Sequence record: MZ868638.1
Length of the DNA: 64,000 nt
Reading direction: 5' to 3' (one strand)
Origin: Escherichia phage vB_EcoM-pEK20
Shown piece after piece: positions 30,285 through 45,430 of this stretch. Under the pieces are notes generated by a model, which ran no database searches, was not told the DNA's origin, and was given only the letters and a program-made list of their open reading frames with translations. Numbering within the stretch: the stretch's first letter is position 1; every line of letters starts with the position of its first letter. The translations under genes and the position numbers were made by a program.

Positions 30285-30324
30285 TAAATTTGTTAAACTT
30301 TGAATTGTCTTGAAAGGAAATAAA

Positions 30325-31011
30325 ATGAAACTGTCTAAAGATACTATCGCTATTCTGAAAAACTTTGCCTCTATTAACTCCGGCATTCTGCTGAGTCAAG
30401 GTAAATTTATTATGACTCGTGCAGTTAATGGCACAACTTATGCGGAAGCAAATATCTCTGATGAAATTGATTTTGACGTAGCACTTTATGATTTGAATAG
30501 CTTCTTAAGCATTTTGAGTCTAGTGTCTGATGATGCTGAAATTTCAATGCACACCGATGGCAATATTAAAATTGCAGATACACGTTCCACGGTTTATTGG
30601 CCTGCCGCTGACAAGAGCACCATTGTTTTTCCTAATAAGCCAATTCAATTTCCAGTGGCTTCTGTGATTACTGAAATTAAAGCTGAAGACCTTCAACAAT
30701 TGCTTCGAGTTTCACGTGGTCTTCAGATTGATACAATTGCTATTACAAATAAAGATGGTAAAATTGTTATCAATGGCTATAATAAAGTTGAAGATTCTGG
30801 ACTAACTCGTCCTAAGTATTCTTTGACTCTTACCGATTATGATGGTTCTAACAACTTTAACTTCGTAATCAATATGGCTAATATGAAAATCCAGCCAGGT
30901 AACTATAAAGTAATGTTGTGGGGAGCTGGTGATAAAGTTGCAGCCAAGTTTGAAAGCTCTCAAGTAAGTTATGTTATTGCGATGGAAGCCGATTCTACTC
31001 ACGACTTCTAA
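30325..31011 (+). CDS. 45: Sliding clamp gp45
   Basis: 228 aa from ATG 30325, near-identical to T4 gp45. Confidence 0.9.
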   Translation: MKLSKDTIAILKNFASINSGILLSQGKFIMTRAVNGTTYAEANISDEIDFDVALYDLNSFLSILSLVSDDAEISMHTDGNIKIADTRSTVYWPAADKSTIVFPNKPIQFPVASVITEIKAEDLQQLLRVSRGLQIDTIAITNKDGKIVINGYNKVEDSGLTRPKYSLTLTDYDGSNNFNFVINMANMKIQPGNYKVMLWGAGDKVAAKFESSQVSYVIAMEADSTHDF

Positions 31012-31086
31012 GTCAAAGCTTTACGTTTAATGTAGTACTATTATGGAGGAGAAATCCTCCAGTTTAATGATAATGAGGAAAATTAC

Positions 31087-32049
31087 ATGATTACTATCAA
31101 TTCCAAAGAACACATTCTAGAACAGAAATATCGTCCTTCTTCCATTGACGAATGTATTCTGCCTGCGTATGACCATGAAACATTCAAGTCTTTAGTATCT
31201 AAAGGAAAACTTCCTCATATTATTTTGCACTCTCCTTCTCCTGGTACAGGTAAAACAACCGTAGCAAAAGCATTATGTAATGATATCAATGCCGAAATGA
31301 TGTTCGTCAACGGTTCTGATTGTAAGATTGATTTTGTGCGTGGTCCGTTAACCGCATTCGCTCGTTCAGTCTCAATGGAAGGCAAGCCTAAAGTTATTGT
31401 TATTGATGAATTTGACCGTAGTGGCCTCGCCGAATCACAACGTCACCTTCGTACATTCATGGAAGAATTCTCTAGTAACTGCTCTATTATTATTACTGCT
31501 AACAACATCGATGGAATTATTGAACCATTACGTAGTCGTTGTCGAGTTATCGAATTCGGACGTCCAACCGAAGAAGATAAAATCTCGATGATGAAGAAAA
31601 TGATTCATCGTATGGTTGAAATCTGTAAGAACGAAAATATCGAAATCGCTGATATGAAAGTTGTTGCAGCTCTGGTTAAAAAGAACTTCCCGGACTTTCG
31701 TCGCACAATTGGACAATTAGACCAGTACTCGTCTAAAGGTGTTCTTGATGCGGGTATTTTGTCTATCGTAACTAATGACCGTGGCACGGTCTCTGATGTT
31801 ATCGAAGCAATGAAGAACAAAGATATCAAACAGCTTCGTGCATTAGCTCCAAAATATGCCGCAGATTATTCATGGTTCATCGATAAATTAGTTTCAGAAT
31901 GTTATGACCAAGTTGCACCTGGTAAAAGTATTATTTCGCTTTATGAAATTGCAGGCGAAAACAATAAGTTTCATGGATTAGCAAGTAATATTGAATTACA
32001 TGTTATGTATATGCTTCTTCAACTGACCTGCGAACTGACTTGGAAATAA
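31087..32049 (+). CDS. 44: Clamp loader large subunit gp44 (AAA+)
   Basis: Walker [11 protein letters not shown]; matches T4 gp44. Confidence 0.9.
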
Positions 32050-32050
32050 T

Positions 32051-32614
32051 ATGAACTTATTCGATGATGACGTCCAGCTTAACGAGCACCAAATTGCATG
32101 GAAGTCTAATGACGCTGATGCGATTCAAAAATGTGCTGATATGTTTAAAGAAAAACCTGAGAATGAATTCTTTAAAATCATTAATGCTATTAATGAAAAG
32201 AAATCTATGTCAATTGCTCAGGTCGACTACTCAAAATTTATGGTTGAGAACTCATTATCCCAGTTCCCAGAATGTATGCCAGCTGTTTACATGATGAACT
32301 TAGTCGGTTCTGAATTAAGTGATGAAGCGCACTTCAACTATATGATGGCGGCAATTCCGCGTGGTCGTCGATTCTCTAAATGGGCTAAACTAGTCGAAGA
32401 CACTTCAGAGTTACTAGTTATCAAACTGTTGATGAAACATTACACAATCAACATGAATGATGCTACTGAGTATAAGCGGCTCCTTGAAAAAAATAACAAG
32501 TTGCCAATAGTCCTTAAAGAACTGAAGGCCATGGTCACTGATGAGTTTCTCAAAGAAGTTACAAAAAATGTGAAAGAACAAAAACAATTTAAAAAATTAG
32601 CATTGGAATGGTAA
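32051..32614 (+). CDS. 62: Clamp loader small subunit gp62
   Basis: 187 aa, position and similarity to T4 gp62. Confidence 0.85.
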
Positions 32615-32616
32615 AA

Positions 32617-32985
32617 ATGATTGAAATTAAATTGAAGAACCCTGAAGATTTTCTGAAAGTCAAAGAGACTTTGACCCGTATGGGCATCGCTAATAACAAG
32701 GATAAAGTCCTTTACCAGTCTTGTCATATCCTCCAAAAGCAAGGTAAATACTATATCGTCCACTTTAAAGAAATGCTGCGTATGGACGGACGTCAGGTTG
32801 ATATTGATGGTGAAGACTATCAGCGACGTGATTCGATTGCTCAGTTGCTTGAAGACTGGGGATTGATTGTTATTGAAGACTCTGCTCGTGAAGATCTGTT
32901 TGGTCTGACTAATAACTTCCGCGTTATCTCTTTTAAACAGAAAGATGACTGGACTTTGAAAGCAAAATATACAATTGGTAATTAA
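32617..32985 (+). CDS. regA: Translational repressor RegA
   Basis: MIEIKLKNPEDFLKVKETLTRMGIANNKDKVLYQSCHILQK... matches T4 RegA. Confidence 0.9.
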   Translation: MIEIKLKNPEDFLKVKETLTRMGIANNKDKVLYQSCHILQKQGKYYIVHFKEMLRMDGRQVDIDGEDYQRRDSIAQLLEDWGLIVIEDSAREDLFGLTNNFRVISFKQKDDWTLKAKYTIGN

Positions 32986-32989
32986 AGCA

Positions 32990-33010
32990 ATGGGACTTCG
33001 GTCCCATTTG
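32990..33010 (+). terminator. Rho-independent terminator (UUCG loop)
   Basis: TGGGAC-TTCG-GTCCCA then TTT. Confidence 0.5.
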
Positions 33011-33066
33011 GAGTATAATAAGTTCATCAACAAACAAAAGACAATAACTCGTCTAAAGGAAATTAA

Positions 33067-35778
33067 ATGAAAGAATTTTACTTAACGGTTGAACAGATTG
33101 GTGATTCAATTTTTGAACGTTACATCGATTCTAACGGTCGTGAACGTACTCGTGAAGTAGAATATAAACCATCACTGTTTGCTCATTGTCCAGAAAGTCA
33201 GGCTACGAAATATTTCGATATCTACGGTAAGCCGTGTACTCGTAAGTTGTTCGCCAATATGCGTGATGCCTCCCAATGGATTAAACGCATGGAAGATATC
33301 GGACTTGAAGCACTTGGCATGGACGATTTCAAATTGGCGTATTTGTCCGACACTTATAACTATGAAATAAAATACGACCATACAAAAATTCGTGTGGCTA
33401 ACTTCGACATCGAAGTAACATCTCCAGATGGGTTCCCTGAGCCATCACAAGCAAAACATCCGATTGATGCTATCACTCATTATGACTCAATTGACGACAG
33501 GTTCTACGTATTTGACCTTTTGAATTCTCCATACGGTAATGTAGAAGAATGGTCTATCGAAATTGCGGCTAAGCTTCAAGAACAAGGTGGTGATGAAGTT
33601 CCATCCGAAATTATCGATAAAATCATTTATATGCCGTTTGATAACGAAAAAGAATTGTTGATGGAATATCTCAACTTCTGGCAACAGAAAACTCCTGTCA
33701 TTTTGACTGGATGGAACGTTGAGTCATTTGATATTCCATATGTGTATAACCGAATCAAGAATATTTTTGGCGAATCTACTGCGAAACGTTTATCACCACA
33801 TCGTAAAACTCGTGTTAAAGTTATCGAAAACATGTATGGTTCTCGTGAAATCATTACATTGTTCGGTATCTCTGTTCTTGATTACATTGACCTTTACAAA
33901 AAATTCTCTTTTACCAATCAACCATCATATTCTCTGGATTACATTTCAGAATTTGAATTGAACGTTGGTAAACTGAAATATGACGGCCCTATTTCTAAGC
34001 TTCGTGAAAGCAATCACCAACGATATATTTCTTATAACATTATCGACGTATATCGTGTATTGCAAATTGACGCTAAGCGTCAGTTCATCAACTTGAGTTT
34101 GGACATGGGTTATTATGCTAAGATACAGATTCAATCTGTGTTTAGCCCAATTAAAACATGGGATGCTATTATTTTTAATAGCCTTAAAGAGCAGAACAAG
34201 GTGATTCCACAAGGTCGTTCTCACCCGGTTCAACCTTATCCAGGCGCTTTTGTTAAGGAACCTATTCCAAATCGGTACAAATATGTAATGAGTTTCGACC
34301 TTACATCTCTGTATCCAAGTATTATTCGCCAAGTGAATATTAGCCCAGAAACAATAGCAGGAACGTTTAAAGTAGCTCCATTGCATGATTATATTAACGC
34401 TGTTGCTGAACGTCCTTCTGATGTGTACAGTTGTTCTCCTAACGGCATGATGTATTATAAAGACCGTGACGGTGTTGTTCCAACTGAAATCACTAAGGTC
34501 TTTAATCAACGTAAAGAACATAAAGGTTACATGCTTGCAGCTCAACGTAATGGTGAAATAATTAAAGAGGCATTGCATAATCCTAATCTTTCTGTTGACG
34601 AACCATTAGATGTTGATTATCGTTTCGACTTCAGTGATGAGATTAAAGAAAAGATTAAAAAGTTGTCTGCTAAATCTCTTAACGAAATGTTGTTTAGAGC
34701 TCAACGTACTGAAGTTGCAGGTATGACTGCCCAAATTAACCGTAAATTGCTTATCAACTCACTTTATGGTGCACTTGGCAACGTTTGGTTCCGTTATTAT
34801 GATTTGCGTAATGCTACTGCAATCACAACATTCGGGCAAATGGCTTTACAGTGGATTGAACGTAAAGTTAATGAATATTTGAATGAAGTTTGTGGCACAG
34901 AAGGTGAAGCTTTCGTTCTTTATGGTGATACAGACTCTATTTACGTATCTGCTGATAAAATTATCGATAAGGTTGGTGAATCTAAATTCCGTGATACCAA
35001 CCATTGGGTAGACTTCTTAGATAAGTTTGCACGTGAACGTATGGAACCAGCTATTGATAGAGGTTTCCGTGAAATGTGTGAATACATGAACAATAAACAA
35101 CACTTAATGTTCATGGACCGAGAAGCTATCGCTGGGCCTCCACTCGGTTCTAAAGGTATTGGTGGATTCTGGACTGGTAAGAAACGTTATGCATTAAACG
35201 TGTGGGATATGGAAGGTACTCGTTACGCTGAGCCTAAACTCAAAATCATGGGTCTAGAGACTCAGAAATCTTCGACTCCTAAAGCAGTACAGAAAGCTCT
35301 TAAAGAATGTATTCGTCGTATGCTTCAAGAAGGTGAAGAATCATTACAAGAATATTTTAAAGAGTTTGAAAAAGAATTCCGTCAATTGAATTATATTAGC
35401 ATCGCGTCGGTATCTTCTGCGAATAACATTGCTAAATATGATGTAGGTGGATTCCCTGGTCCCAAATGCCCGTTCCATATTCGTGGAATTCTGACGTATA
35501 ACCGGGCTATCAAAGGTAATATCGATGCACCACAAGTTGTAGAAGGTGAAAAAGTATATGTTCTGCCTTTACGTGAAGGAAACCCATTCGGTGATAAATG
35601 TATCGCATGGCCTTCTGGTACTGAAATCACAGATTTAATTAAAGACGATGTACTTCATTGGATGGACTACACTGTTCTCCTTGAGAAGACATTTATTAAA
35701 CCACTTGAAGGATTCACATCAGCAGCGAAACTCGATTACGAGAAGAAAGCATCTCTGTTCGATATGTTCGATTTTTGA
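33067..35778 (+). CDS. 43: DNA polymerase (family B)
   Basis: 903 aa; matches RB69 gp43 (MKEFYLTVEQIGDSIFERYIDSNGRERTREVEYKPSLFAHCPESQATKYFDIYGKPC...) as recalled; motifs DIE exonuclease, YGDTDS. Confidence 0.97.
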   Translation: MKEFYLTVEQIGDSIFERYIDSNGRERTREVEYKPSLFAHCPESQATKYFDIYGKPCTRKLFANMRDASQWIKRMEDIGLEALGMDDFKLAYLSDTYNYEIKYDHTKIRVANFDIEVTSPDGFPEPSQAKHPIDAITHYDSIDDRFYVFDLLNSPYGNVEEWSIEIAAKLQEQGGDEVPSEIIDKIIYMPFDNEKELLMEYLNFWQQKTPVILTGWNVESFDIPYVYNRIKNIFGESTAKRLSPHRKTRVKVIENMYGSREIITLFGISVLDYIDLYKKFSFTNQPSYSLDYISEFELNVGKLKYDGPISKLRESNHQRYISYNIIDVYRVLQIDAKRQFINLSLDMGYYAKIQIQSVFSPIKTWDAIIFNSLKEQNKVIPQGRSHPVQPYPGAFVKEPIPNRYKYVMSFDLTSLYPSIIRQVNISPETIAGTFKVAPLHDYINAVAERPSDVYSCSPNGMMYYKDRDGVVPTEITKVFNQRKEHKGYMLAAQRNGEIIKEALHNPNLSVDEPLDVDYRFDFSDEIKEKIKKLSAKSLNEMLFRAQRTEVAGMTAQINRKLLINSLYGALGNVWFRYYDLRNATAITTFGQMALQWIERKVNEYLNEVCGTEGEAFVLYGDTDSIYVSADKIIDKVGESKFRDTNHWVDFLDKFARERMEPAIDRGFREMCEYMNNKQHLMFMDREAIAGPPLGSKGIGGFWTGKKRYALNVWDMEGTRYAEPKLKIMGLETQKSSTPKAVQKALKECIRRMLQEGEESLQEYFKEFEKEFRQLNYISIASVSSANNIAKYDVGGFPGPKCPFHIRGILTYNRAIKGNIDAPQVVEGEKVYVLPLREGNPFGDKCIAWPSGTEITDLIKDDVLHWMDYTVLLEKTFIKPLEGFTSAAKLDYEKKASLFDMFDF

Positions 35779-35818: not shown

Positions 35819-36454
35819 ATGAAAACTACTCCTATTACTATCGCTATTGACGCAATCATAAAACAAGCTTCTTCTTTGGCCGCTATGGCCAAAGTAATTA
35901 GTCAAAACCCTGCTCGTTATAATGCTATTCTAGAAACTCTTCGACGCCCGGGACTTAGTAATTATGAAAGTCGTGTAATTATTACAGGTGTGGGTAAGAA
36001 TGCTAATATTGCAACTAAAGCTTCTGAGACATTTGCTTCACTTGGTATCCCGAGTATGTACTTGAACACCGGGCATTATTCTCACGGTGATGCAGGATTC
36101 ATTGCGCCTAATGATGTGTTGATTCATATTAGTCGTTCTGGTAAAACTGAAGAAATGATAGGCGTGGCTAAGCATCTTAAAATGATTCGTCCGAACGTCA
36201 AACAGATTCTGTTGCATTGTAACCCAGACATTCCACAAGAAAATGAAGCCCTTTTTGATTACTCTTTCTGTACAGGCATCGCAGTAGAGGTTGATGAGAA
36301 TTCTCTGGCTCCGACTATGTCCACTACATTGTTGTTAGCGCTTATCGATACGTTTGCTATCAACCTTTCGTCTGAACGTGGATTTACCTCTAATGACTTC
36401 CTTAAGTTCCACCCTGGCGGTGCACTAGGTGCCATGTTACGAGGCGAACAATGA
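35819..36454 (+). CDS. SIS-domain sugar-phosphate isomerase, KdsD/GutQ-like (D-arabinose-5-phosphate isomerase family)
   Basis: GVGKNANIATKASETFASLGIPS...HGDAGF...HISRSGKTEE...LAPTMSTT...RGFTSNDFLKFHPGGALG parallels the E. coli KdsD SIS domain motif for motif. Confidence 0.75.
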   Translation: MKTTPITIAIDAIIKQASSLAAMAKVISQNPARYNAILETLRRPGLSNYESRVIITGVGKNANIATKASETFASLGIPSMYLNTGHYSHGDAGFIAPNDVLIHISRSGKTEEMIGVAKHLKMIRPNVKQILLHCNPDIPQENEALFDYSFCTGIAVEVDENSLAPTMSTTLLLALIDTFAINLSSERGFTSNDFLKFHPGGALGAMLRGEQ

Positions 36455-36635: not shown

Positions 36636-38324
36636 ATGAAAAAAGCTGTTATTCTTGGTGCTGGACTGGCAACTCGTTTGTATCCAATAACGCATCATAT
36701 TCCTAAGGTGCTTGTTAACTATAAACAAGACACTATTCTGAGCAATTTGTATACAATTTATTCTGACCTTGGCGCAGATGAAATTATTGTAGTAGTTCAT
36801 TCAAAATTTGCTGAAACTGTTCGAGCTTATTGTGAGCAAGAAGGGTTCAATGTGACTATTCGTACAGTTGATGAAGCGTATGGTTCCGCTTATGCTCTTG
36901 CTAAATTACACAAAGATTTAGACGGCCATAATGTAATTGTTAACTGGTGTGATATTATTCCCGATTTTGGTTCATGGTCTTGGAATGTTAACGCAATCTA
37001 TGTTAAGGGCGACGAATGTCGTTATAATTTCGACGGTGAAAATATCACTAACGTAGGTTCAACAGGTGGTAATGTTGTAGGAATTTATCAGTTCAAAGAC
37101 TGGGAATTCTATATGGGTTCTACTGATGAGGAAATTCATGAATACTGCAAAGGACGTGATTTCGTAGAATTCCTTTACGGCAGCGCATTCAATAAATCAG
37201 AGCTTATGAATATCATCGACCTTGGTGATATGCCTAAACTTGAAAAAGCTCATGAAGTTCGTGAACTTAATCGTAGTTTTAATGCAGTTGAAATTGGCGA
37301 AGAAACGGTAACAAAGATTGCTTTAACAGAACAGGGCGTTGCACTTCAAAAAGATGAAGTCAATTGGTATAAGAAAGTTAAATCAGATTCAGTTCCACGG
37401 ATTGTAAGTTATCATCCTGGCGGCCACTTTATTATGGAACGCATTAAAGGTAAGCCAGCATTTGAATATATTAAATCCAAATCGAGTCTTGCTCGTCCAC
37501 AAATTGTTGATGCAATTTTAGACGCACTGAAATTCAGCACAGACACTTATTTTGTAAGTCCTGAAACTGTTCGTCGTGATTTCACTAAAGAATTCTATAC
37601 GAAAGTTATTGATCGTTGTGAAAGTATTCAACCATTGATTGATTCATTTGGTAAAATCACACATGTGAACTACACTAAGATTGGGCGTCTGAAGCCAATG
37701 CTGAAACAAGCTTTAGAACACCTTATTCGTTATCATAACCGTTCTCAGGGACAGTACTCTGTTATTCATGGTGACCCGAACTTCAGTAATACTATGATTA
37801 CTGATAATGGTGAAGTCAAGTTTATCGACCCTCGTGGATATTTTGGTGAAACCAAGATTTATGGGCCAAAATTGTATGATGAAGCTAAAGTGCTTTATGC
37901 TGTTTCAGGTTATGATGAATTCAACGCTAATCCGACCTGGGGTCAGTTTACTATTGATGAAACAACTTGTAATGTGACTATTAACATCAATCCATTAGTT
38001 TACAAATATGGAAAGATGAGTTCGTTTAATGAGTATCATCATTTGGCTGTAGCAATTATCTGGATTGCATTAGGTGGTTATTTCAAGAATAATCCACTTA
38101 AAGCGGTAGCCGCATATTATAAAGGTATGGAACTTCTGACTAAGCAATTACGTAACATGGGCCGTGTACTTCAGGACGGCACTATTAGTTATGATGTAGC
38201 AGAACCTGTAACGGCTACTCTGATTACAAAAAATCCTGGTAAATGGGTACTAACTGATAAAGAAACTGGTGTTTCTTATCGTCCAATCGGTGGCGATATC
38301 ACTCATCAATGGGAACGAATCTAA
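36636..38324 (+). CDS. Bifunctional sugar-1-phosphate nucleotidyltransferase (N-term) / APH-like sugar kinase (C-term)
   Basis: N-term KAVILGAGLATRLYPIT...PKVL is the GxGTRLxPxT nucleotidyltransferase signature; C-term IHGDPNFSNTMI plus KFIDPRGYFG is the HGDxxxxN / D-x-G catalytic pair of APH/choline-kinase-fold kinases. Confidence 0.7.
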   Translation: MKKAVILGAGLATRLYPITHHIPKVLVNYKQDTILSNLYTIYSDLGADEIIVVVHSKFAETVRAYCEQEGFNVTIRTVDEAYGSAYALAKLHKDLDGHNVIVNWCDIIPDFGSWSWNVNAIYVKGDECRYNFDGENITNVGSTGGNVVGIYQFKDWEFYMGSTDEEIHEYCKGRDFVEFLYGSAFNKSELMNIIDLGDMPKLEKAHEVRELNRSFNAVEIGEETVTKIALTEQGVALQKDEVNWYKKVKSDSVPRIVSYHPGGHFIMERIKGKPAFEYIKSKSSLARPQIVDAILDALKFSTDTYFVSPETVRRDFTKEFYTKVIDRCESIQPLIDSFGKITHVNYTKIGRLKPMLKQALEHLIRYHNRSQGQYSVIHGDPNFSNTMITDNGEVKFIDPRGYFGETKIYGPKLYDEAKVLYAVSGYDEFNANPTWGQFTIDETTCNVTININPLVYKYGKMSSFNEYHHLAVAIIWIALGGYFKNNPLKAVAAYYKGMELLTKQLRNMGRVLQDGTISYDVAEPVTATLITKNPGKWVLTDKETGVSYRPIGGDITHQWERI

Positions 38325-38710
38325 TGCACCGTGTAGAAAACATGCTTAATCTTTGTTTTGATGTCGATGATTGTATAACAGAGTGGAATAACAACCGTGA
38401 TTACGTGAACTTCAAACCAGACGTCGAAATGGTGACTGCCATTAATGCCCTGTACGATGCAGGGCATACCATAACGCTTTACACTGCTCGCGGTATGAAG
38501 TCAGTCGGTCCTGGTCGTATAGCAATTGACATTCTCCCAAGTCTGATTCAGAACTTGGCAAACATTGGATTGAAGTACCATAATTTGCTAACACATAAAC
38601 CAGTATATGATTGGATTATCGACGACAAAGCTATGCGTCCTGACGAATTCAAAGCTCTTATGAATAAAGGCGAATTCGAAACATTTAAATCGTATAAACC
38701 GAATCTATAA
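38324..38710 (+). CDS. HAD-superfamily phosphatase, KdsC-like
   Basis: FDVDDCIT (KdsC FDVDGVLT), TLYTAR, IIDDKAM (motif IV DD); start 38324 overlaps upstream stop, alternative 38309. Confidence 0.6.
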   Translation: MHRVENMLNLCFDVDDCITEWNNNRDYVNFKPDVEMVTAINALYDAGHTITLYTARGMKSVGPGRIAIDILPSLIQNLANIGLKYHNLLTHKPVYDWIIDDKAMRPDEFKALMNKGEFETFKSYKPNL

Positions 38711-38766
38711 TAATTTAAGTAAGACCTGCAAAAACCATCGCGTCAATTAACGTGAGATGCAAAAAA

Positions 38767-39927
38767 ATGAATACTTTTAAAATCGGAACGAATTTTGATT
38801 TAGCTCTTCTTGATAAAATCGTAGAGCTCAATAAAACTTATCCTAATAGCTTGATAAACGAAGTATACGGCTCTACAAGAGAAATGGCTTTTGTAGCAGC
38901 CAGACCTGATTTTAGGCTTCCTGACGTTGACAAAAAGATGTTAGAAGATTACGTTAAACGTTGTAACGAATTAGGTATTTGCTTTAACTATACACTCAAC
39001 ACGATAAATCCTGGTTCAAAAAGAGAACTAGTTGAGTGGAAGAAGAAAGCTATTCAGGATTATGTTCAGTATCTTTGGTCAATAGGCGTATGGCGTATTA
39101 CTATCGCTAACCCTGTTGTTATGGAAATTGTTCGTGAAGTCAATAAAGACATTGAGATTGAAGTTTCAACAATTCTACATGTCGATGCTGTAACTCAAAT
39201 CAAATACTTGCATGACCAGTATAATATCAAAAAGGTCTGCTGTGGAATTCATAAGAACCGTTCGGTTTCTTTCCTGAAGCGTGCAGCAGAGTTTTGCAAT
39301 AAGAACAATATAATATTTGAAGTTCTTGTAAATGAGTTCTGTTCTAATGCTGGTAAAGGGTATACAACACATTGTAGCTATCGTGACTCTTGCTATATTT
39401 TCCATAGTACTGATGTTACCGCTGATGATGCTAAATCCTTAAATGGATATCCAATGCAACACTGCATTAAAGCTCGTGATACAGATCCATTTAACTGGTT
39501 GAGAACTCGTTTTGTTCGTCCTCAAGATTTGAAACTTTATAATGATATTGGTATCACTCAATTCAAAGTTTCAGGACGTACAGGTAGCACAGACTACATT
39601 TTGAAAGTTCTTGAAGCTTATGCTTCCGAAAAATTTGAAGGTAATTTGTTGGAATTGTGGAAGCCTTTAGAGACCATTTTCACTCTTGAAAATGAGACCG
39701 AGTTTTCACATACGGTAAATATTGAAACCTCTTTGTTAGATGGCTTTTTAGAAAAAAGGTGGTTCAGACATCCAGATTTCGATTGTGCTAATGAAATCTG
39801 TGGGACGACGTGTACATATTGTGAAAGATATTATAAACGTCAATTATCTAAAAATGGGTTATCAGAAAACTCTATATCTATTATTGATATAACTAACTCT
39901 GACGACGCTTTGAGGTACCCAGAATGA
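38767..39927 (+). CDS. Cys-rich enzyme of unknown family (possible Fe-S/metal-binding)
   Basis: Central Cys cluster KVCCGIH...EFCNKNN...EFCSNAGKGYTTHCSYRDSCY and C-terminal CANEICGTTCTYCERYY; fold not assignable by eye. Confidence 0.4.
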   Translation: MNTFKIGTNFDLALLDKIVELNKTYPNSLINEVYGSTREMAFVAARPDFRLPDVDKKMLEDYVKRCNELGICFNYTLNTINPGSKRELVEWKKKAIQDYVQYLWSIGVWRITIANPVVMEIVREVNKDIEIEVSTILHVDAVTQIKYLHDQYNIKKVCCGIHKNRSVSFLKRAAEFCNKNNIIFEVLVNEFCSNAGKGYTTHCSYRDSCYIFHSTDVTADDAKSLNGYPMQHCIKARDTDPFNWLRTRFVRPQDLKLYNDIGITQFKVSGRTGSTDYILKVLEAYASEKFEGNLLELWKPLETIFTLENETEFSHTVNIETSLLDGFLEKRWFRHPDFDCANEICGTTCTYCERYYKRQLSKNGLSENSISIIDITNSDDALRYPE

Positions 39928-40206
39928 TTTCTAGAAAAACTTTTAACCACCAACTTAATGAAGAGATTTTGACTATGAAAATTAACAGCAACGAACAAAT
40001 TCTTAAAAAGGCCCTTATGGGCCTGTTTGAAACCAAAGCGGCTTAAAGTGATTAAAGAACCTGTTCAATTGTAATACTACGCTGATGCATTTCTTCATAG
40101 TGTCCTTGGAAGTATCGATGCCGAAGCTCTACGTTATATCAACATCGCTAAGAAATTCAAATAAGCTTTATGAATTGAGTATATAATAAATTGTATTGAG
40201 GTAAAC

Positions 40207-40923
40207 ATGGGAAAACATAACACAATGAAATATATTAAAGCCGCAGATTTTCAATCCGCATTTAAAGCTGTCAATCGTGAAATTTTAGAAAACCCGGAAT
40301 TCGTAACTGATTCTCGTATTGGACGTTGTAATGAAATTGGGTCTATGACAGTAGTTGTTGACACTCCATCATCATTCAAAATGACCGACCCACGTATTAA
40401 CCGCATCTCTTATGAATATGCTGAAGACTTCTGGAAGTTTATGGTTTCTGGTGGTACTGATGCAGAAGAAGCATTTAAGGCATATCCTAACGTTGCTAAA
40501 TTTATTTCTAAACCTAAATCAGACGCTTTGCCTGCAAACTTCAACACTTTCTACGGTCCACGAATTGCGGCCCAATTACCAGCTCTTTTAAAAGAACTTA
40601 AAGAGAAGCCTAACTCTCGAAGAGTTGTGTTTCAAATTCTTGAAAGTTCTGATCAGGCTTTGCTTGATTCGGACGAAACGCTTGAATATCCATGTACTGA
40701 CTCAGTGACTTATTATATTCGTGATGGTAAGCTTTATACCCACTGCCATATGCGTTCTCAGAACTGTGCTGTTGTTATGCAGTTGGATTTTTATCTCCAA
40801 GGAAAATTACTTCATTATATCGCTAACGAATGTGGTGTAGAAGTTGGTGATTATACTCATACCATGGTAAGTGCCCATGTGTTTGAACGTGATTTTGATT
40901 ATGTTAAAGGATTCCTTGACTAA
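40207..40923 (+). CDS. 42: Thymidylate-synthase-fold pyrimidine hydroxymethylase (gp42-like, divergent)
   Basis: KPNSRRVVFQIL (TS NPxSRR), YPCTDSV (nucleophile PC), MRSQNCAVVMQLD (TS RSxD...N/D specificity position is Asp); position equals T4 gene 42. Confidence 0.65.
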   Translation: MGKHNTMKYIKAADFQSAFKAVNREILENPEFVTDSRIGRCNEIGSMTVVVDTPSSFKMTDPRINRISYEYAEDFWKFMVSGGTDAEEAFKAYPNVAKFISKPKSDALPANFNTFYGPRIAAQLPALLKELKEKPNSRRVVFQILESSDQALLDSDETLEYPCTDSVTYYIRDGKLYTHCHMRSQNCAVVMQLDFYLQGKLLHYIANECGVEVGDYTHTMVSAHVFERDFDYVKGFLD

Positions 40924-41822
40924 TGGCTATTTTCCGCGTACCTATCTTGAGTATGCGGTCTTATGAAACTGGACAGTATGCTATCCTTAAGGATGGCAAC
41001 TTCCAACTTCATTTGCACCGTGCTAATCCAGGTGATGTGATTACATATCCACGTAATGCATCTGATATTAAAGAATGTGAACGTCTTTTCCCAGAATTTA
41101 AGTTTGTTCCATTATGGTATAAAGATAACGCGTATAACACTCGTAAATATTTCTGGTCTGAAAATGAATTTGTGGTTGATTCATTAATTGCTTATTATGA
41201 TTGTGATTTTCTAATAACAGATATCACTGGATATGATGGTGCTTTTGATGTAGAATTCAATTTCAATATCACCGCAGACCCTAATAAACCGCGTTTTTAT
41301 ATTGACGAATTCTTAAAAACCGACATGTTGTCGGTTAATCGTTCACTTCAAACTACTGTGTTGAATGAACGTCAAAAGGAAGTGCTGGTTAACGCTGGTG
41401 CGGATGGTAATAAGATTATCGTAACGCAGAAAGTTATACGTCCTTCCATCATGCAGCGTCTTGTAGGTGATTTGGCTCCTATTCATCTAGATGGTATTTT
41501 TCATCCATTTCGAATTAGTGACCCGTGCTATCGTTTTGAACAAGTGGTTGAATGTGCAATTCAATTAGGCCAACCGCTTTATATAACCGATCCAAATAAT
41601 AGCTTCGACAGAAATAAGTATCCTGAAGAAGCGCTGATTCGAATTTTTAAACCAACTAAAACCGAGTACTATCAAATTCTTAAAGGACGTCCAAAGATTC
41701 AATATTTCGAAAATCCTGAAGAAGTATTCCATCCAGGTCTTGGTGAGTTCATCTACTTTAATGCTTTAATTTCTTCGCCGTATAATATACCTAAATACGA
41801 AGATGTCGTAATCGAGGAATAA
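40923..41822 (+). CDS. Hypothetical protein at the T4 beta-gt position
   Basis: 299 aa; no motif I can assign. Confidence 0.35.
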   Translation: MAIFRVPILSMRSYETGQYAILKDGNFQLHLHRANPGDVITYPRNASDIKECERLFPEFKFVPLWYKDNAYNTRKYFWSENEFVVDSLIAYYDCDFLITDITGYDGAFDVEFNFNITADPNKPRFYIDEFLKTDMLSVNRSLQTTVLNERQKEVLVNAGADGNKIIVTQKVIRPSIMQRLVGDLAPIHLDGIFHPFRISDPCYRFEQVVECAIQLGQPLYITDPNNSFDRNKYPEEALIRIFKPTKTEYYQILKGRPKIQYFENPEEVFHPGLGEFIYFNALISSPYNIPKYEDVVIEE

Positions 41823-41823
41823 A

Positions 41824-42372
41824 ATGGCTAAAATTATTTTAGTAGATGGCCCGGATAATGCTGGTAAAACAACTTTCATTAATGACATAATGGAAATTAG
41901 TGAAAGATATGTAAAGATTGATTTCCCTAAACGAACGGTTGATGGACGTTTCGATGTTAAGTCTCGAAATGAAGTTGGCTGTTTCGAAACGATGCTGAAT
42001 TATTTAGACCCTACTAAGATTTATCTGTTAGATCGTGGATATATTAGTAACTGGGTTTACGGACGTATTCGACAAGATGCGGACTCGGTTCTTGACGTTT
42101 ATGAACAGGATTATGTTCGTCTTTGCCAAAACCATGATGTGTTCACAATTATTTTAACACGTAACGAAATGACTGAAAGTTTTGAAGACGACCTTATTAC
42201 TTTGTCTTCATTCGGTTTTAATACAGTAATTTCATATTTTGAAGAGTTTGCAATCCATAACGAAATCCAAACGTATCAATTACTTAATCATGATGGTGCT
42301 AACAAAGTTATAGGATTTAATGCAAGCGAACGTAATAATTTGATTACAGAAATTATCAAATGGGCTCGTTAA
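41824..42372 (+). CDS. Tmk-like P-loop nucleoside monophosphate kinase
   Basis: IILVDGPDNAGKTT Walker A and LLDRGYISNWVYG resemble thymidylate kinase DRY motif region. Confidence 0.45.
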   Translation: MAKIILVDGPDNAGKTTFINDIMEISERYVKIDFPKRTVDGRFDVKSRNEVGCFETMLNYLDPTKIYLLDRGYISNWVYGRIRQDADSVLDVYEQDYVRLCQNHDVFTIILTRNEMTESFEDDLITLSSFGFNTVISYFEEFAIHNEIQTYQLLNHDGANKVIGFNASERNNLITEIIKWAR

Positions 42373-42471: not shown

Positions 42472-43644
42472 ATGTCTGATTTAAAATCTCGTCTGATTAA
42501 AGCTTCTACTTCTAAAATGACTGCAGACTTGACTAAGTCTAAGTTGTTTAATAATCGCGATGAAGTCCCTACTCGTATTCCGATGTTGAATATTGCATTA
42601 GGTGGTGCACTGAATGCTGGGTTGCAATCAGGCTTAACTATTTTTGCTGCTCCTTCTAAACACTTTAAAACGTTGTTTGGACTGACCATGGTTGCAGCAT
42701 ATATGAAGAAATATAAAGATGCAATTTGTTTGTTCTATGATTCAGAATTTGGTGCTTCAGAATCTTATTTTCGTTCGATGGGTGTTGATTTAGACCGTGT
42801 AGTTCATACTCCGATTCAATCTGTCGAACAACTTAAAGTTGATATGACTAATCAGCTTGACGCGATTGAACGCGGTGATAAAGTTATTATCTTTATCGAT
42901 TCAATTGGTAATACTGCATCTAAGAAAGAAACCGAAGATGCGTTGAACGAGAAAGTTGTAGGTGATATGTCTCGTGCTAAGGCACTTAAATCTCTGTTCC
43001 GCATTGTGACTCCTTATCTGACTATTAAAGATATTCCGTGTGTTGCAATCAACCATACAGCAATGGAAATTGGCGGACTATATCCTAAAGAGATTATGGG
43101 TGGTGGTACAGGTATTCTTTACTCTGCTAACACTGTATTCTTTATCTCTAAACGTCAGGTTAAAGAAGGTACAGAATTGACCGGTTATGACTTCACGTTG
43201 AAAGCAGAAAAATCTCGTACAGTTAAAGAGAAATCTACTTTCCCAATCACAGTCAATTTCGATGGCGGTATCGACCCATTCAGTGGCTTGTTAGAAATGG
43301 CAACTGAAATTGGTTTTGTAGTTAAGCCTAAAGCCGGGTGGTATGCTCGAGAATTCCTTGACGAAGAAACAGGCGAAATGATTCGTGAAGAGAAATCATG
43401 GCGTGCTAAAGCTACTGATTGTGTAGAATTCTGGGGACCGTTGTTTAAACACAAACCTTTCCGAGATGCAATTGAAACTAAATATAAACTAGGTGCTATC
43501 TCTTCTATTAAAGAAGTCGATGACGCTGTTAACGACCTTATTAATTGCAAAGCAACAACTAAAGTTCCGGTTAAAACTTCTGATGCTCCGTCTGCAGCAG
43601 ATATAGAAAACGACCTTGACGAAATGGAAGATTTCGATGAATAA
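42472..43644 (+). CDS. uvsX: RecA-like recombinase UvsX
   Basis: 390 aa; RecA core motifs, matches T4 UvsX. Confidence 0.9.
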   Translation: MSDLKSRLIKASTSKMTADLTKSKLFNNRDEVPTRIPMLNIALGGALNAGLQSGLTIFAAPSKHFKTLFGLTMVAAYMKKYKDAICLFYDSEFGASESYFRSMGVDLDRVVHTPIQSVEQLKVDMTNQLDAIERGDKVIIFIDSIGNTASKKETEDALNEKVVGDMSRAKALKSLFRIVTPYLTIKDIPCVAINHTAMEIGGLYPKEIMGGGTGILYSANTVFFISKRQVKEGTELTGYDFTLKAEKSRTVKEKSTFPITVNFDGGIDPFSGLLEMATEIGFVVKPKAGWYAREFLDEETGEMIREEKSWRAKATDCVEFWGPLFKHKPFRDAIETKYKLGAISSIKEVDDAVNDLINCKATTKVPVKTSDAPSAADIENDLDEMEDFDE

Positions 43645-43978
43645 TCTCGATGATTTAAATCTAGAAATCGTTGATGAATCCCCTTCTTCGGAAGGGGAAG
43701 ACATTCGCAAAGAACGAGTGTTTAATGAATCTCTTAAAATTGTCCGTTCAGCAATGGAAAATGTCATTCAAGAGATTCTGATTACGCTTGAAGATGGTTC
43801 TCATCATATAGTCTATATTACAAAACTAGACTGGGTTGATGGTAAAATCGTAATGGACTTTGCAGTTCTTGACCAGGACAGAAAAGCAGAACTTGCACCA
43901 CATGTTGAAAAATGTGTTACAATGCAAGTACAACAAGCTTTTAATGAACGGGCCAAGAAAAAATTTAGATTCTTTTAA
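43637..43978 (+). CDS. 40: Head vertex assembly chaperone gp40-like
   Basis: Position between uvsX and 41; start could be 43616 or 43637. Confidence 0.5.
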   Translation: MNNLDDLNLEIVDESPSSEGEDIRKERVFNESLKIVRSAMENVIQEILITLEDGSHHIVYITKLDWVDGKIVMDFAVLDQDRKAELAPHVEKCVTMQVQQAFNERAKKKFRFF

Positions 43979-43987
43979 GGAGTTATC

Positions 43988-45430
43988 GTGGTAGAAATTA
44001 TTTTGTCTCATCTAGTATACGACCAGGCTTATTTTTCTAAGGTCTGGCCTTATATGGATTCTGAGTATTTTGAGCGTGGACCGGCAAAAAATGTCTTTAA
44101 AATTATAAAGAGCCACGTTAACGAATATAATGCAATGCCGTCTATCAATGCATTAAAGGTGGCTTTAGATAACAGTTCTTTAACTGAAGCCGAATATAAA
44201 GGAACTTCAGACCTAATTGAAAAATTGGCTGATACTCCTGAAGACCACGAATGGTTGGTTAAAGAAACTGAGAAATATGTCCAGCAAAAAGCGATGTATA
44301 ATGCTACATCCAAAATCATTGAGATTCAGTCTAATGCTGAACTACCTCCAGAACAACGTAACAAGAAAATGCCTGACGTAGGAGCTATTCCTGATATTAT
44401 GCGTCAAGCACTTTCAATTTCGTTTGATAGTTATGTTGGACATGACTGGATGGAAGACTATGAAGCACGCTGGCTTTCTTATCTGAACAAAGCACGTAAG
44501 GTCCCGTTCAAATTAAACATTCTGAATAAAATCACTAAAGGTGGTGCTGAAACCGGTACACTGAATGTTTTAATGGCTGGTGTTAACGTTGGTAAATCTT
44601 TAGGCCTTTGTTCACTTGCTGCAGATTATCTTCAAACAGGTCATAATGTTCTTTATATTTCCATGGAAATGGCTGAAGAAGTTTGTGCTAAGCGTATAGA
44701 TGCAAACATGCTTGACGTATCACTCGATGATATCGATGATGGTAACGTATCTTATGCTGAATATAAAGCCAAGATGGAAAAATGGCGTTCAAAATCCACA
44801 TTAGGACGTTTAGTGGTTAAACAGTATCCTACTGGCGGAGCTAATGCTAATACATTCCGTGCATTGCTTAATGAATTGAAACTCAAGAAGAACTTTGTGC
44901 CATCTGTAATCATGGTTGATTACTTAGGTATTTGTGGGTCTTGTCGTATCAGAGTTTACACTGAAAATAGCTACACATTAGTTAAAGCTATCGCAGAAGA
45001 ACTTCGTGCATTAGCAGTAGAATCTGAAACAGTTCTATGGACTGCAGCTCAAGTAGGACGTGCAGCATGGGATGCTTCGGATATGAACATGAGCGATATT
45101 GCAGAATCAGCAGGTTTACCAGCAACGGCAGATTTCATGTTGGCCGTAATTGAAACCGAAGAACTTGCACAAGCTGAACAACAACTTATCAAACAAATCA
45201 AATCACGATATGGTGATAAGAATAAGTGGAATAAATTCCTGATGGGTGTACGTAAAGGCAACCAGAAATGGATTGAGATTGAGCAAGAAGGCATGAACAC
45301 ATCTAACACAGTAAATGAAAACGCAGGTGCTCAGATGCGTCAGGCAGAGGTGAATCGTACGGAACGCGTAGGTAAAGCCAAAGCAACACGTGCTGACCTA
45401 GATAGCTTAGCCAATGAGTTAAAATTTTAA
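43988..45430 (+). CDS. 41: Replicative DNA helicase gp41 (DnaB-like)
   Basis: GTG start MVEIILSHLVYDQAYFSKVWPYMDSEYF matches T4 gp41; Walker A GVNVGKS. Confidence 0.9.
   Translation: MVEIILSHLVYDQAYFSKVWPYMDSEYFERGPAKNVFKIIKSHVNEYNAMPSINALKVALDNSSLTEAEYKGTSDLIEKLADTPEDHEWLVKETEKYVQQKAMYNATSKIIEIQSNAELPPEQRNKKMPDVGAIPDIMRQALSISFDSYVGHDWMEDYEARWLSYLNKARKVPFKLNILNKITKGGAETGTLNVLMAGVNVGKSLGLCSLAADYLQTGHNVLYISMEMAEEVCAKRIDANMLDVSLDDIDDGNVSYAEYKAKMEKWRSKSTLGRLVVKQYPTGGANANTFRALLNELKLKKNFVPSVIMVDYLGICGSCRIRVYTENSYTLVKAIAEELRALAVESETVLWTAAQVGRAAWDASDMNMSDIAESAGLPATADFMLAVIETEELAQAEQQLIKQIKSRYGDKNKWNKFLMGVRKGNQKWIEIEQEGMNTSNTVNENAGAQMRQAEVNRTERVGKAKATRADLDSLANELKF

Follow-up and report, generated by a model that had tools for sequence, protein, structure and literature searches.

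The U32-family protein of this phage, the orthologue of RB69 gp50 (ORF050c), is best read as a prephenate-dependent, O2-independent dCMP C5-hydroxylase, which would give the phage a second, anaerobic route to 5-hydroxy-dCMP. The probability of this reading is put at about 0.6. The evidence is inferential and comes from the family and fold of the protein, the conservation of its cysteines, the linkage of the gene and its phyletic pattern. The published label of gp50 is 'sugar or heterocycle reductase' (Lee et al. 2026). No paper was found that connects a phage U32 protein with chorismate mutase, prephenate or 5hoC. ORF050c is unmentioned in the 2018 RB69 paper, and the Thanatos paper and a phage Tn-seq preprint are silent on the U32 orthologue.

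In the window, i.e., the whole stretch of 64,000 nucleotides that was analysed, the gene is surrounded by the following features:

35819-36454, + strand: D-arabinose-5-phosphate isomerase, KdsD/GutQ-like SIS protein, RB69 gp55 orthologue (NCBIfam KpsF/GutQ 112.9 bits, Pfam SIS, PHROG 5670)
36636-38324, + strand: bifunctional sugar kinase/nucleotidyltransferase of the AfhE type, RB69 gp52:53 orthologue, intact (Pfam NTP_transferase and APH-like kinase; HY126 AfhE, PMC13326640)
38309-38710, + strand: HAD-family sugar phosphatase of the AfhF type, RB69 gp51 orthologue (NCBIfam TIGR01689 capsule biosynthesis phosphatase, 49 bits; PMC13326640)
38767-39927, + strand: U32-family Cys-rich enzyme, RB69 gp50/ORF050c orthologue (PF01136, PHROG 5757, AF2 model matching 5D88, 10 conserved Cys, hhalign to RlhA)
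39924-40164 (end estimated), + strand: disrupted small ORF of the RB69 ORF049c family, 79 aa when intact (ORF list, phiE142 alignment)
40207-40923, + strand: thymidylate-synthase-fold 5-hydroxy-dCMP synthase, RB69 gp48 orthologue (Pfam Thymidylat_synt 56.9 bits; 99% identical to RB69 ORF048c)
40923-41822, + strand: DNA arabinosyltransferase 1, RB69 gp46:47 orthologue, intact (PHROG 3891; PMC13326640 Table 1)
41824-42372, + strand: thymidylate-kinase-like nucleotide kinase, RB69 gp45 orthologue (PHROG 761; Tmk HMM match in the window)

The preliminary description had placed the U32 gene between the HAD phosphatase (38309-38710) and the TS-fold gene (40207-40923), and this position holds. It had also called the latter a hydroxymethylase within an hmC cluster, and both names have to be corrected. 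The RB69 and HY126 orthologues were shown to be flavin/O2-dependent 5-hydroxy-dCMP synthases, and the product of the cluster is arabinosyl-5-hydroxycytosine (PMC13326640). The O2 requirement of RB69 gp48 was shown by 18O2 labelling, and 5hodC forms in E. coli from gp48, with or without a kinase (PMC13326640). The synthesis of UDP-arabinose is accounted for by AfhE and AfhF (PMC13326640), and a dCTPase is encoded by arabinosyl-5hoC phages (PMC13326640 Table 1).

The ORF at 38767-39927 (+ strand) encodes 386 amino acids followed by a stop. A GTG at 38752 would allow a longer ORF, but MNTFK opens every homologue, which makes the ATG at 38767 the likely start. A likeness to the peptidase-U32 family had been guessed from the letters alone. 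The guess is supported, as the protein matches PF01136 (Peptidase U32) with 42.2 bits against a gathering cut-off of 22.4 (residues 94-286 on profile positions 2-192 of 233) and aligns with RlhA in hhalign at a probability of 83%. The structure search agrees with it. The top fold match of the AF2 model (pLDDT 93.8) is Mk0906 (PDB 5D88), a U32 'peptidase' domain from Methanopyrus kandleri. PF01136 is the only Pfam domain found in the protein; neither DUF3656 nor Peptidase_U32_C, the accessory domain of TrhP, was detected. Searching the PDB by sequence, whether with the protein or with the profile of its family, returned nothing meaningful, and PADLOC gave no defence-system match to it. This family profile recovers only 1,719 of 1.84 billion representatives at E<=1e-3. 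As it belongs to a separate small clade and has no accessory domains, the phage protein is not an RlhA or TrhP orthologue.

Thirteen cysteines are present, at positions 66, 72, 158, 159, 177, 192, 203, 209, 233, 340, 345, 349 and 352. Nine of them (C158, C192, C203, C209, C233, C340, C345, C349 and C352) are invariant across 109 homologues with identities down to 46%, and C177 is conserved in at least 90%. Given this invariance at such low identity, the pattern is more than chance. The central Cys cluster and the C-terminal C-x4-C-x3-C-x2-C motif described earlier are real, the latter being C340-x4-C345-x3-C349-x2-C352. Purifying selection on the gene is strong, with a dN/dS of about 0.04-0.06 against T4-like orthologues; synonymous sites are saturated in the other comparisons. 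A radical SAM reading of C345-x3-C349-x2-C352, which has an aromatic residue at 351, was considered and rejected. The hallmark of that family is a CX3CX2C near the N-terminus of a partial TIM barrel, with a site-differentiated cluster and SAM-binding motifs. Here the motif is C-terminal, a fourth invariant cysteine (C340) accompanies it, and there is no Pfam Radical_SAM match.

Among characterised U32 proteins, the closest in profile comparisons is RlhA (YdcP), the E. coli 23S rRNA 5-hydroxycytidine-2501 synthase. The hhalign probabilities for TrhP (7%) and UbiU (4%) are weak, which leaves RlhA as the only one with a usable mapping of residues. RlhA shares the U32 TIM-barrel domain and acts on C5 of cytosine, as proposed for the phage enzyme. 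Its essential residues E161, C169 and C176 align with E190, C203 and C209, all three invariant in the 109 homologues. RlhA, too, has a further Cys cluster at its C-terminus, which is essential, and it depends on prephenate and Fe-S (PMC5727448). There are clear differences, too. The similarity is visible by profile methods only, and RlhA is a 653-aa binder of the pre-50S particle with a DUF3656 domain, whereas the phage protein has 386 aa and lacks that domain. The distal CX3C pair of RlhA (C192, C196) is represented by C233 only. Finally, the substrate of RlhA is RNA, in contrast to the free deoxynucleotide proposed here.

The canonical Fe-S motif of the U32 family, CX6CX15CX3/4C (CX6CX16CX38C in UbiU), binds a [4Fe-4S] cluster (PMC6747719). 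Its putative counterpart in the phage protein is the invariant C192-x10-C203-x5-C209-x23-C233. Because the canonical spacing is only partly kept, the Fe-S ligands are assigned by inference. A first Fe-S centre would occupy the canonical U32 site, with C203, C209 and C233 plus C192 or another cysteine as ligands, and a second would probably be held by C340/C345/C349/C352.

The anaerobic ubiquinone hydroxylases UbiU-UbiV are also U32 proteins with a [4Fe-4S] cluster bound by conserved cysteines, and they back up the flavin/O2-dependent UbiI/H/F. Prephenate was identified as their oxygen donor by 18O labelling (PMC10990095). UbiU-UbiV form a heterodimer of two U32 proteins that has a lipid-binding partner (the SCP2 protein UbiT) and a lipid substrate, whereas the phage system has a single U32 gene, and the second cluster may sit in cis in the C-terminal four cysteines. 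No second U32 match and no SCP2 match was found in the 64,000-nt window, and the NCBIfam UbiU score of the phage protein is 18.5 bits against a cut-off of 440. The tRNA ho5U34 modification likewise has two routes, namely the U32/prephenate-type, O2-independent TrhP and the unrelated, O2-dependent TrhO (PMC6599085). The gp50/gp48 pair would be the DNA-precursor analogue of TrhP/TrhO. The two systems differ in their substrates, tRNA uridine for TrhP and, as proposed, dCMP for the phage enzyme, and in the aerobic partner, which is a rhodanese (TrhO) in the tRNA system and a thymidylate-synthase-fold flavoenzyme in the phage. Prephenate is the oxygen donor or a required metabolite for UbiU/V, RlhA and TrhP alike (PMC10990095, PMC5727448, PMC6599085). 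Hydroxylation in vitro has yet to be shown for any U32 protein (PMC10990095, PMC11574389).

By comparison with these enzymes, the phage protein is predicted to be a soluble, single-subunit Fe-S hydroxylase working without O2. It would hydroxylate C5 of a cytosine deoxynucleotide, most likely dCMP, with oxygen taken from prephenate, and the Fe-S centre(s) would perform the two-electron oxidation. The linked Tmk-like kinase would then phosphorylate the resulting 5-hydroxy-dCMP, the phage polymerase would build it into DNA, and arabinosylation would follow on the DNA. The product would be the one formed by gp48, DLP3 gp80 and the HY126 synthase. The gene of the gp48-type synthase lies in the same cluster, about 280 nt downstream of the U32 gene, but this synthase requires O2 and is unrelated to the U32 enzyme in fold and cofactor. 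In RB69-type phages, the U32 protein would be the anaerobic counterpart of this adjacent flavin/O2-dependent enzyme. As these phages destroy dCTP, replication in the anoxic gut would be impossible without an anaerobic route.

The gene neighbourhoods of viral U32 genes bear on the substrate. A Tmk-like kinase is the most constant genomic partner, with Tmk HMM matches in 15/15 T4-like loci and 29/38 other viral U32 loci. In genomes of anaerobes, a Gmk-like NMP kinase::methyltransferase fusion is followed by the U32 gene. None of the 38 non-T4 loci has a TS-homologue hydroxylase within +/-10 kb of U32, against 15/15 T4-like loci, yet U32 keeps company there with a DNA glycosyltransferase and an NMP kinase; many of the loci are near-duplicates. 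Homologues of the 5hoC arabinosyltransferase (cluster 1) stand beside U32 in 25 non-T4 loci, and BLASTP of the arabinosyltransferase of the window against the U32 neighbours in two of the loci (L047 and L007) gave E values of 3e-14 and 2e-10. Further neighbours in non-T4 loci are genes for dCMP deaminase, dUTPase, UDG, dNK, NT5C and DNA polymerase.

The same chemistry might be applied to the polymer, i.e., to cytosine in DNA after replication instead of dCMP. The characterised nucleic-acid U32 enzymes do act on polynucleotides (PMC5727448, PMC6599085), and the nearest profile match is one of them, RlhA. We nevertheless consider it unlikely. The constant linkage with an NMP kinase, including the Gmk-like fusions, implies a mononucleotide product that needs phosphorylation. 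With a dCTPase encoded (PMC13326640 Table 1), little C should enter the DNA. The extra RNA-binding domains of RlhA and TrhP are missing from the phage protein as well.

The second line of linkage concerns the oxygen donor and gives indirect though strong support for the use of prephenate. Chorismate mutase (CM) is the enzyme that forms prephenate. A CM gene lies beside the U32 or the TS-homologue gene in LC53, Entb_45 and 52 other phage records. In the two named phages, it directly adjoins the U32 gene or overlaps its end (Pfam CM_2 scores of 44.6 and 40.9 bits). A CM-only HMM matched in 13/15 T4-like loci and in 11/38 of the other viral loci, usually next to U32. Outside the T4-like group, the matches include DAHP-synthase::CM fusions (Pfam 88.7 and 71.8 bits) and stand-alone CMs immediately 3' of U32. 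At two other loci (L008 and L030), a DAHP synthase gene follows U32 immediately. No CM was found in this window or in any of the approximately 153 Mosigvirus records, so the link applies to this phage via orthology only.

The CM link fits a prephenate-dependent RNA enzyme equally well. Together with the U32 homology and the top match to RlhA, it could point to an RlhA/TrhP analogue that hydroxylates rRNA or tRNA of the host or phage and tunes translation, its location among DNA-modification genes being incidental. The probability of this is low. Four module types place U32 among genes for DNA glycosyltransferase, NMP kinase, dCMP deaminase, dUTPase and DNA polymerase, the 5hoC pathway always accompanies it in T4-like phages, and the protein carries neither Peptidase_U32_C nor DUF3656.

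Similarly slim are the chances that the protein assists the TS-like 5-hydroxy-dCMP synthase in a redox capacity, e.g., as a flavin reductase or an electron-transfer protein. Its cysteine richness, which makes Fe-S binding probable, would suit such a role, as would its location one gene away from gp48, an enzyme that needs reduced flavin. Yet gp48 with or without a kinase is enough for 5hodC formation in E. coli (PMC13326640), and the pathway operates in Acinetobacter phages and Dhakaviruses that have no U32. Conversely, in 38/38 non-T4 loci U32 has no TS homologue within +/-10 kb. The linkage to CM and DAHP synthase would also be left unexplained by such a role.

A role in modifying the sugar or sugar nucleotide, e.g., by oxidising, reducing or rearranging the arabinose precursor, is improbable in spite of the flanking sugar-pathway genes, the frequency of TIM-barrel folds among sugar-phosphate enzymes and the presence of SIS and AfhE genes in many non-T4 loci. 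The sugar pathway is independent of U32, as the same arabinosyl modification is made by DLP3 and Maestro, which lack the gene, and UDP-arabinose is accounted for by AfhE/AfhF. Module type A (Tmk-GT1-U32-PolIII alpha) and the dCMP deaminase/Tmk contexts contain zero sugar-activation genes, and no sugar-acting U32 protein is known. A genuine collagenase-type (PrtC-type) peptidase is hardly credible, being suggested by database names only ('peptidase', 'collagenase-like protease') against a gene context that is all nucleotide metabolism, invariant residues that are the cysteines typical of Fe-S U32 oxidases, and a historical annotation unsupported for characterised U32 members.

The distribution of the gene is consistent with an anaerobic dCMP hydroxylase. 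It was found in 221 phage records, whose hosts are all Enterobacterales or Shewanella. Among phage records with the TS-like synthase, none of the 57 from Acinetobacter and none of the about 20 from Rhizobium has it, and the TS-like synthase thus occurs without U32 in phages of strict aerobes. This phyletic contrast draws on few independent lineages. Among species-representative genomes, nearly all that carry U32 belong to obligate anaerobes. Dhakaviruses such as JS98 infect E. coli and have the same pathway but no U32, so the gene is not indispensable in facultative anaerobes.

More tentatively, at somewhat less than even odds, U32 together with an NMP kinase and a DNA glycosyltransferase, often with CM or DAHP-synthase::CM, may form a self-contained anaerobic pathway to glycosylated 5-hydroxypyrimidine DNA with a wide distribution among the uncultured phages of obligate anaerobes, jumbo phages among them, while RB69-type phages carry both routes. 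Many such phages would then be predicted to have glycosylated 5-hydroxypyrimidine DNA, which bears on restriction evasion, sequencing artefacts and phage therapy. The RB69-type O2-dependent route would be the later one. On this view, the phages would redirect the aromatic metabolism of the host so as to gain an oxygen atom, and no earlier U32 hydroxylase would have had a small soluble substrate such as dCMP, with which the prephenate-dependent chemistry could be assayed directly in vitro.

If the dCMP hydroxylase reading is correct, it would explain how phages that replace all their cytosine via an O2-requiring enzyme, and destroy dCTP, can multiply in an anoxic gut. Paired O2- and prephenate-dependent hydroxylation, as known for ubiquinone and tRNA ho5U, would gain a third example and its first in DNA. 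The phage CM and DAHP synthase would be auxiliary metabolic genes supplying the oxygen-atom donor. The U32 substrates known so far are a lipid, tRNA and a precursor of the ribosome; compared with these, a soluble enzyme of one subunit that works on dCMP would offer a practical system for mechanistic work.

A scan for promoters and terminators gave counts no higher than in shuffled sequence. Directly downstream of the U32 gene, in the slot that holds a chorismate mutase in other genera, only a 40-aa ORF (39924-40046) remains of the ORF049c-family gene. Alignment with phiE142 shows that the gene was disrupted by a 1-nt insertion and a G>T nonsense change. ORF049c is intact in RB69 (240 nt), and HY126 shares the truncated 123-nt ORF of the window. 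The 280-nt gap at 39924-40206 was also considered as a decayed chorismate mutase, which was rejected as the weak tblastn alignment runs across stop codons and Pfam/HMM searches gave nothing. The ORF049c-family gene is distinct from chorismate mutase, and both co-exist in other genera.

The U32 gene of the window phage is best read as encoding a prephenate-dependent, O2-independent 5-hydroxy-dCMP synthase, with a probability of roughly 0.6. In the literature surveyed, the gene is annotated as a family match but has no assigned function. New on this best-supported reading would be a U32 hydroxylase of a known kind acting on a DNA precursor, accompanied in many phages by its own prephenate-supplying enzyme. 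Nothing in that literature links a phage U32 protein to chorismate mutase (CM), prephenate or 5-hydroxycytosine.

The phage is T4-like and belongs to the RB69 group (Mosigvirus). Over the 6.6 kb surrounding the U32 gene, identity is 98.3% with Escherichia phage HY126 and 97% with RB69. The modification cluster forms an insertion between gp43 (DNA polymerase) and uvsX/gp41 (flanks at 30310-35778 and 42472-45430), in what is the gene 42 region of T4. The rest of the replication module is of the standard T4 type (sliding clamp, clamp loader, RegA). The cluster includes:

36636-38324, AfhE-type gene (sugar kinase/nucleotidyltransferase), 562 aa, a single intact ORF, split as ORF052c/053c in the RB69 GenBank record
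38767-39927, + strand, U32 ORF, 386 aa, orthologue of RB69 ORF050c/gp50
40207-40923, gp48 orthologue, thymidylate-synthase (TS) homologue
40923-41822, arabinosyltransferase gene, 299 aa, a single intact ORF, split as ORF046c/047c in the RB69 GenBank record

The preliminary description had taken the cluster for an hmC pathway and the TS-fold neighbour for a hydroxymethylase. Both assignments have to be replaced, as the base in RB69 DNA is arabinosylated 5-hydroxycytosine, not hmC, and gp48 produces 5-hydroxy-dCMP (Lee et al., NAR 2026, PMC13326640). The gp48 protein binds flavin, and 18O2 labelling identified O2 as the oxygen source of its product (PMC13326640). An isomerase, the bifunctional AfhE and the HAD phosphatase AfhF lead to UDP-arabinose, according to He et al. 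2026 as related in PMC13326640. The same paper lists gp50 in Table 1 only, as 'Sugar or heterocycle reductase' with structural match 5D88, and gives it neither text nor experiment. The intact AfhE and arabinosyltransferase ORFs of the window agree with Lee et al., who regard the RB69 splits as sequencing errors (PMC13326640). Right after the U32 ORF, an ORF049c-family gene (39924-40206; 79 aa when intact, as in RB69 and phiE142) is broken: a 1-nt insertion and a G>T nonsense change have reduced it to a 40-aa ORF. HY126 shares this truncated ORF, so the disruption is a variant of the lineage rather than a sequencing error in the window. This gene was also considered as a chorismate mutase remnant, and the idea was rejected.

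The Cys-rich character of the protein is confirmed, and its guessed U32-family membership is supported. Four of its 13 cysteines form the C-terminal string C340-x4-C345-x3-C349-x2-C352, and the U32 annotation of the gp50 gene is long-standing (PMC1524935). In an alignment of 109 homologues, down to 46% identity, C158, C192, C203, C209, C233 and all four motif cysteines are invariant, C177 is at least 90% conserved, and E190, R206, Y210 and H213 are likewise conserved. Against orthologues of other T4-like genera, dN/dS is about 0.04-0.06; in the remaining comparisons, synonymous sites are saturated. A sigma-70-like TTTAAA-16-TATAAT site lies at 38684-38711, in the gap of 56 nt that immediately precedes the U32 start. 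It may be of chance origin, as the regional count of such sites does not exceed the shuffled expectation.

The distribution of the gene differs from that of the TS-like synthase, in contrasts that rest on few independent lineages with many near-duplicate loci. U32 occurs in 221 phage records, with hosts all Enterobacterales or Shewanella, whereas the synthase occurs in 373, including 57 Acinetobacter phages, about 20 Rhizobium phages and Agrobacterium phages. In Acinetobacter phage Maestro, the genes for phosphatase and synthase abut, and both U32 and CM are missing. Acinetobacter phage DLP3 has the same kind of modification and a cluster without U32 (PMC13326640). A caveat to the oxygen-based reading is that Dhakaviruses (e.g., JS98) have E. 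coli hosts, yet lack U32. The dCTPase of RB69-type phages excludes C (PMC13326640), and the known hydroxylase is O2-dependent, so an O2-independent route would be needed in the gut. TrhO/TrhP and UbiIHF/UbiUV offer parallels for such paired O2-dependent and O2-independent routes, here proposed for gp48 and U32.

Outside T4-like phages, the gene neighbourhoods are informative. Among 53 viral or metagenomic U32 loci collected, neighbouring ORFs were clustered and cluster identities checked by Pfam. Three module types were seen:

type A, non-T4: primase-Tmk-GT1-U32-PolIII alpha
type B, non-T4: GT1-SIS-AfhE-(DAHPS::CM)-c9-U32
type C, jumbo phages: U32-(CM)-GT1-AfhE-c9-GT

GT1 shows direct homology over its full length to the window's arabinosyltransferase 1 (BLASTP E 3e-14 and 2e-10). 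An HMM of the TS-like synthase matched 15/15 T4-like loci and, in a six-frame search within +/-10 kb, 0/38 non-T4 loci. The thymidylate-kinase-like Tmk is present in 15/15 and 29/38, respectively. Further neighbours are dCMP deaminase, dUTPase, UDG, deoxynucleoside kinase, 5'-nucleotidase and nucleoside deoxyribosyltransferase. At loci with the acceptor-specific glycosyltransferase and a dedicated NMP kinase but, within +/-10 kb, not the known hydroxylase, U32 alone is left as a candidate source of the hydroxylated base. The neighbourhoods argue for a nucleotide, not a sugar, as its substrate.

The same chemistry could be performed on the DNA polymer, or U32 could be an RNA hydroxylase. The kinase linkage speaks against both, and an NMP kinase beside U32 argues for hydroxylation at the mononucleotide level. 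A role as redox helper of gp48 is countered by the loci without a TS homologue, and a sugar-modifying role by those without sugar genes. A true peptidase fits poorly with the chorismate mutase linkage.

Chorismate mutase forms prephenate, the oxygen donor that the proposed synthase would use. Serratia phage LC53 and Enterobacter phage Entb_45 each have a type II CM ORF (Pfam CM_2, 44.6 and 40.9 bits; cut-off 27) that overlaps the U32 stop codon and stands between the U32 and 5-hydroxy-dCMP synthase genes. The LC53 protein matched 54 of 50,697 phage records by tblastn, all T4-like, with Klebsiella, Serratia, Yersinia, Enterobacter, Proteus, Erwinia, Edwardsiella, Providencia, Pectobacterium, Morganella, Kosakonia, Shewanella and E. 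coli (EcS1) as hosts; among the matches listed, every one adjoins U32 or TS-homologue genes. The linkage is seen again in viral contigs of no relation to these: a CM-only HMM matched 13/15 T4-like and 11/38 other viral U32 loci. The non-T4 matches include DAHP synthase fusions (DAHPS::CM; 88.7 and 71.8 Pfam bits in locus L042), and in jumbo-phage contigs a stand-alone CM starts right at the U32 gene end. DAHP synthase lies directly 3' of U32 in loci L008 and L030. DAHPS::CM or DAHPS alone was thus seen near or next to U32 at L042 8411-9433, L044-L046, L056, L008 11145-11891 and L030; these are phage-borne shikimate-pathway genes for which the literature surveyed holds no explanation. No CM was found anywhere in the 64-kb window, and in Mosigviruses prephenate would come from host PheA and TyrA. 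Prephenate is the demonstrated oxygen donor of UbiU/V (PMC10990095), and genetic evidence shows that RlhA and TrhP require it (PMC5727448, PMC6599085).

In analogy to the proposed UbiU/V scheme (PMC10990095), the cytosine ring of dCMP would lose two electrons, relayed via putative Fe-S centre(s). Prephenate would then decarboxylate and aromatise, delivering hydroxide to C5 and yielding 5-hydroxy-dCMP and phenylpyruvate. A second cluster may be held by the C-terminal four-Cys motif of the phage protein, which would then achieve in cis what takes two subunits in the UbiU-UbiV heterodimer. The invariant C158, at a barrel-strand end, could be the C6 nucleophile; such a Cys is a feature of other pyrimidine-C5 enzymes. 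We infer this whole mechanism (electron relay, prephenate donor, second cluster, C158 role) by analogy.

Two further genes accompany U32 in some viruses. The c9 family (~200 aa) belongs to the type B and C modules and, in type B, immediately precedes U32. It occurs in 16 non-T4 viral loci (L039, L040, L042, L044-L046, L048, L049, L051, L053-L057, L059, L061; e.g., L057 16569-17171) but in no T4-like phage. The family had no Pfam or PADLOC match and may act as a partner protein or accept electrons. In phage LC53 (L012 4352-4990), a gene for a homing endonuclease of the NUMOD3 type (212 aa; 54.6 bits in Pfam) is inserted between the HAD phosphatase and U32. It is absent from the window, and the insertion recurs in several T4-like genera (cluster c27: L019, L024, L025, L027).

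The subfamily also occurs in cellular genomes. With one genome per species across GTDB, 23 carriers were found, almost all obligate anaerobes, including Oscillospiraceae, Lachnospiraceae, Romboutsia, Phocaeicola, Tannerella, Erysipelotrichales, Gastranaerophilaceae, Ruminiclostridium, Desulfobacteraceae and Woesearchaeota. The GT1/AfhE/SIS/CM/c9 module recurs in several of these loci. A fourth arrangement in obligate anaerobes, type D, is a conserved four-gene operon of a GP88 family member, a guanylate-kinase-like NMP kinase::SAM methyltransferase fusion, a ~267-aa protein and U32 (L075 3044-7137, Phocaeicola faecalis; also L002/L065, L071-L074, L076). The U32 enzyme is again paired with an NMP kinase, and the combination with a methyltransferase suggests synthesis of a 5-methoxy-pyrimidine nucleotide. 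PADLOC gave no defence match for this operon except a weak methyltransferase one. A second, remoter branch of the U32 clade (27-30% identity) is found in Clostridia and Desulfobacteraceae genomes (L002 13227-14360, L077-L086); in L002 it adjoins a radical SAM/SPASM protein, a deoxynucleoside kinase and a nucleoside deoxyribosyltransferase.
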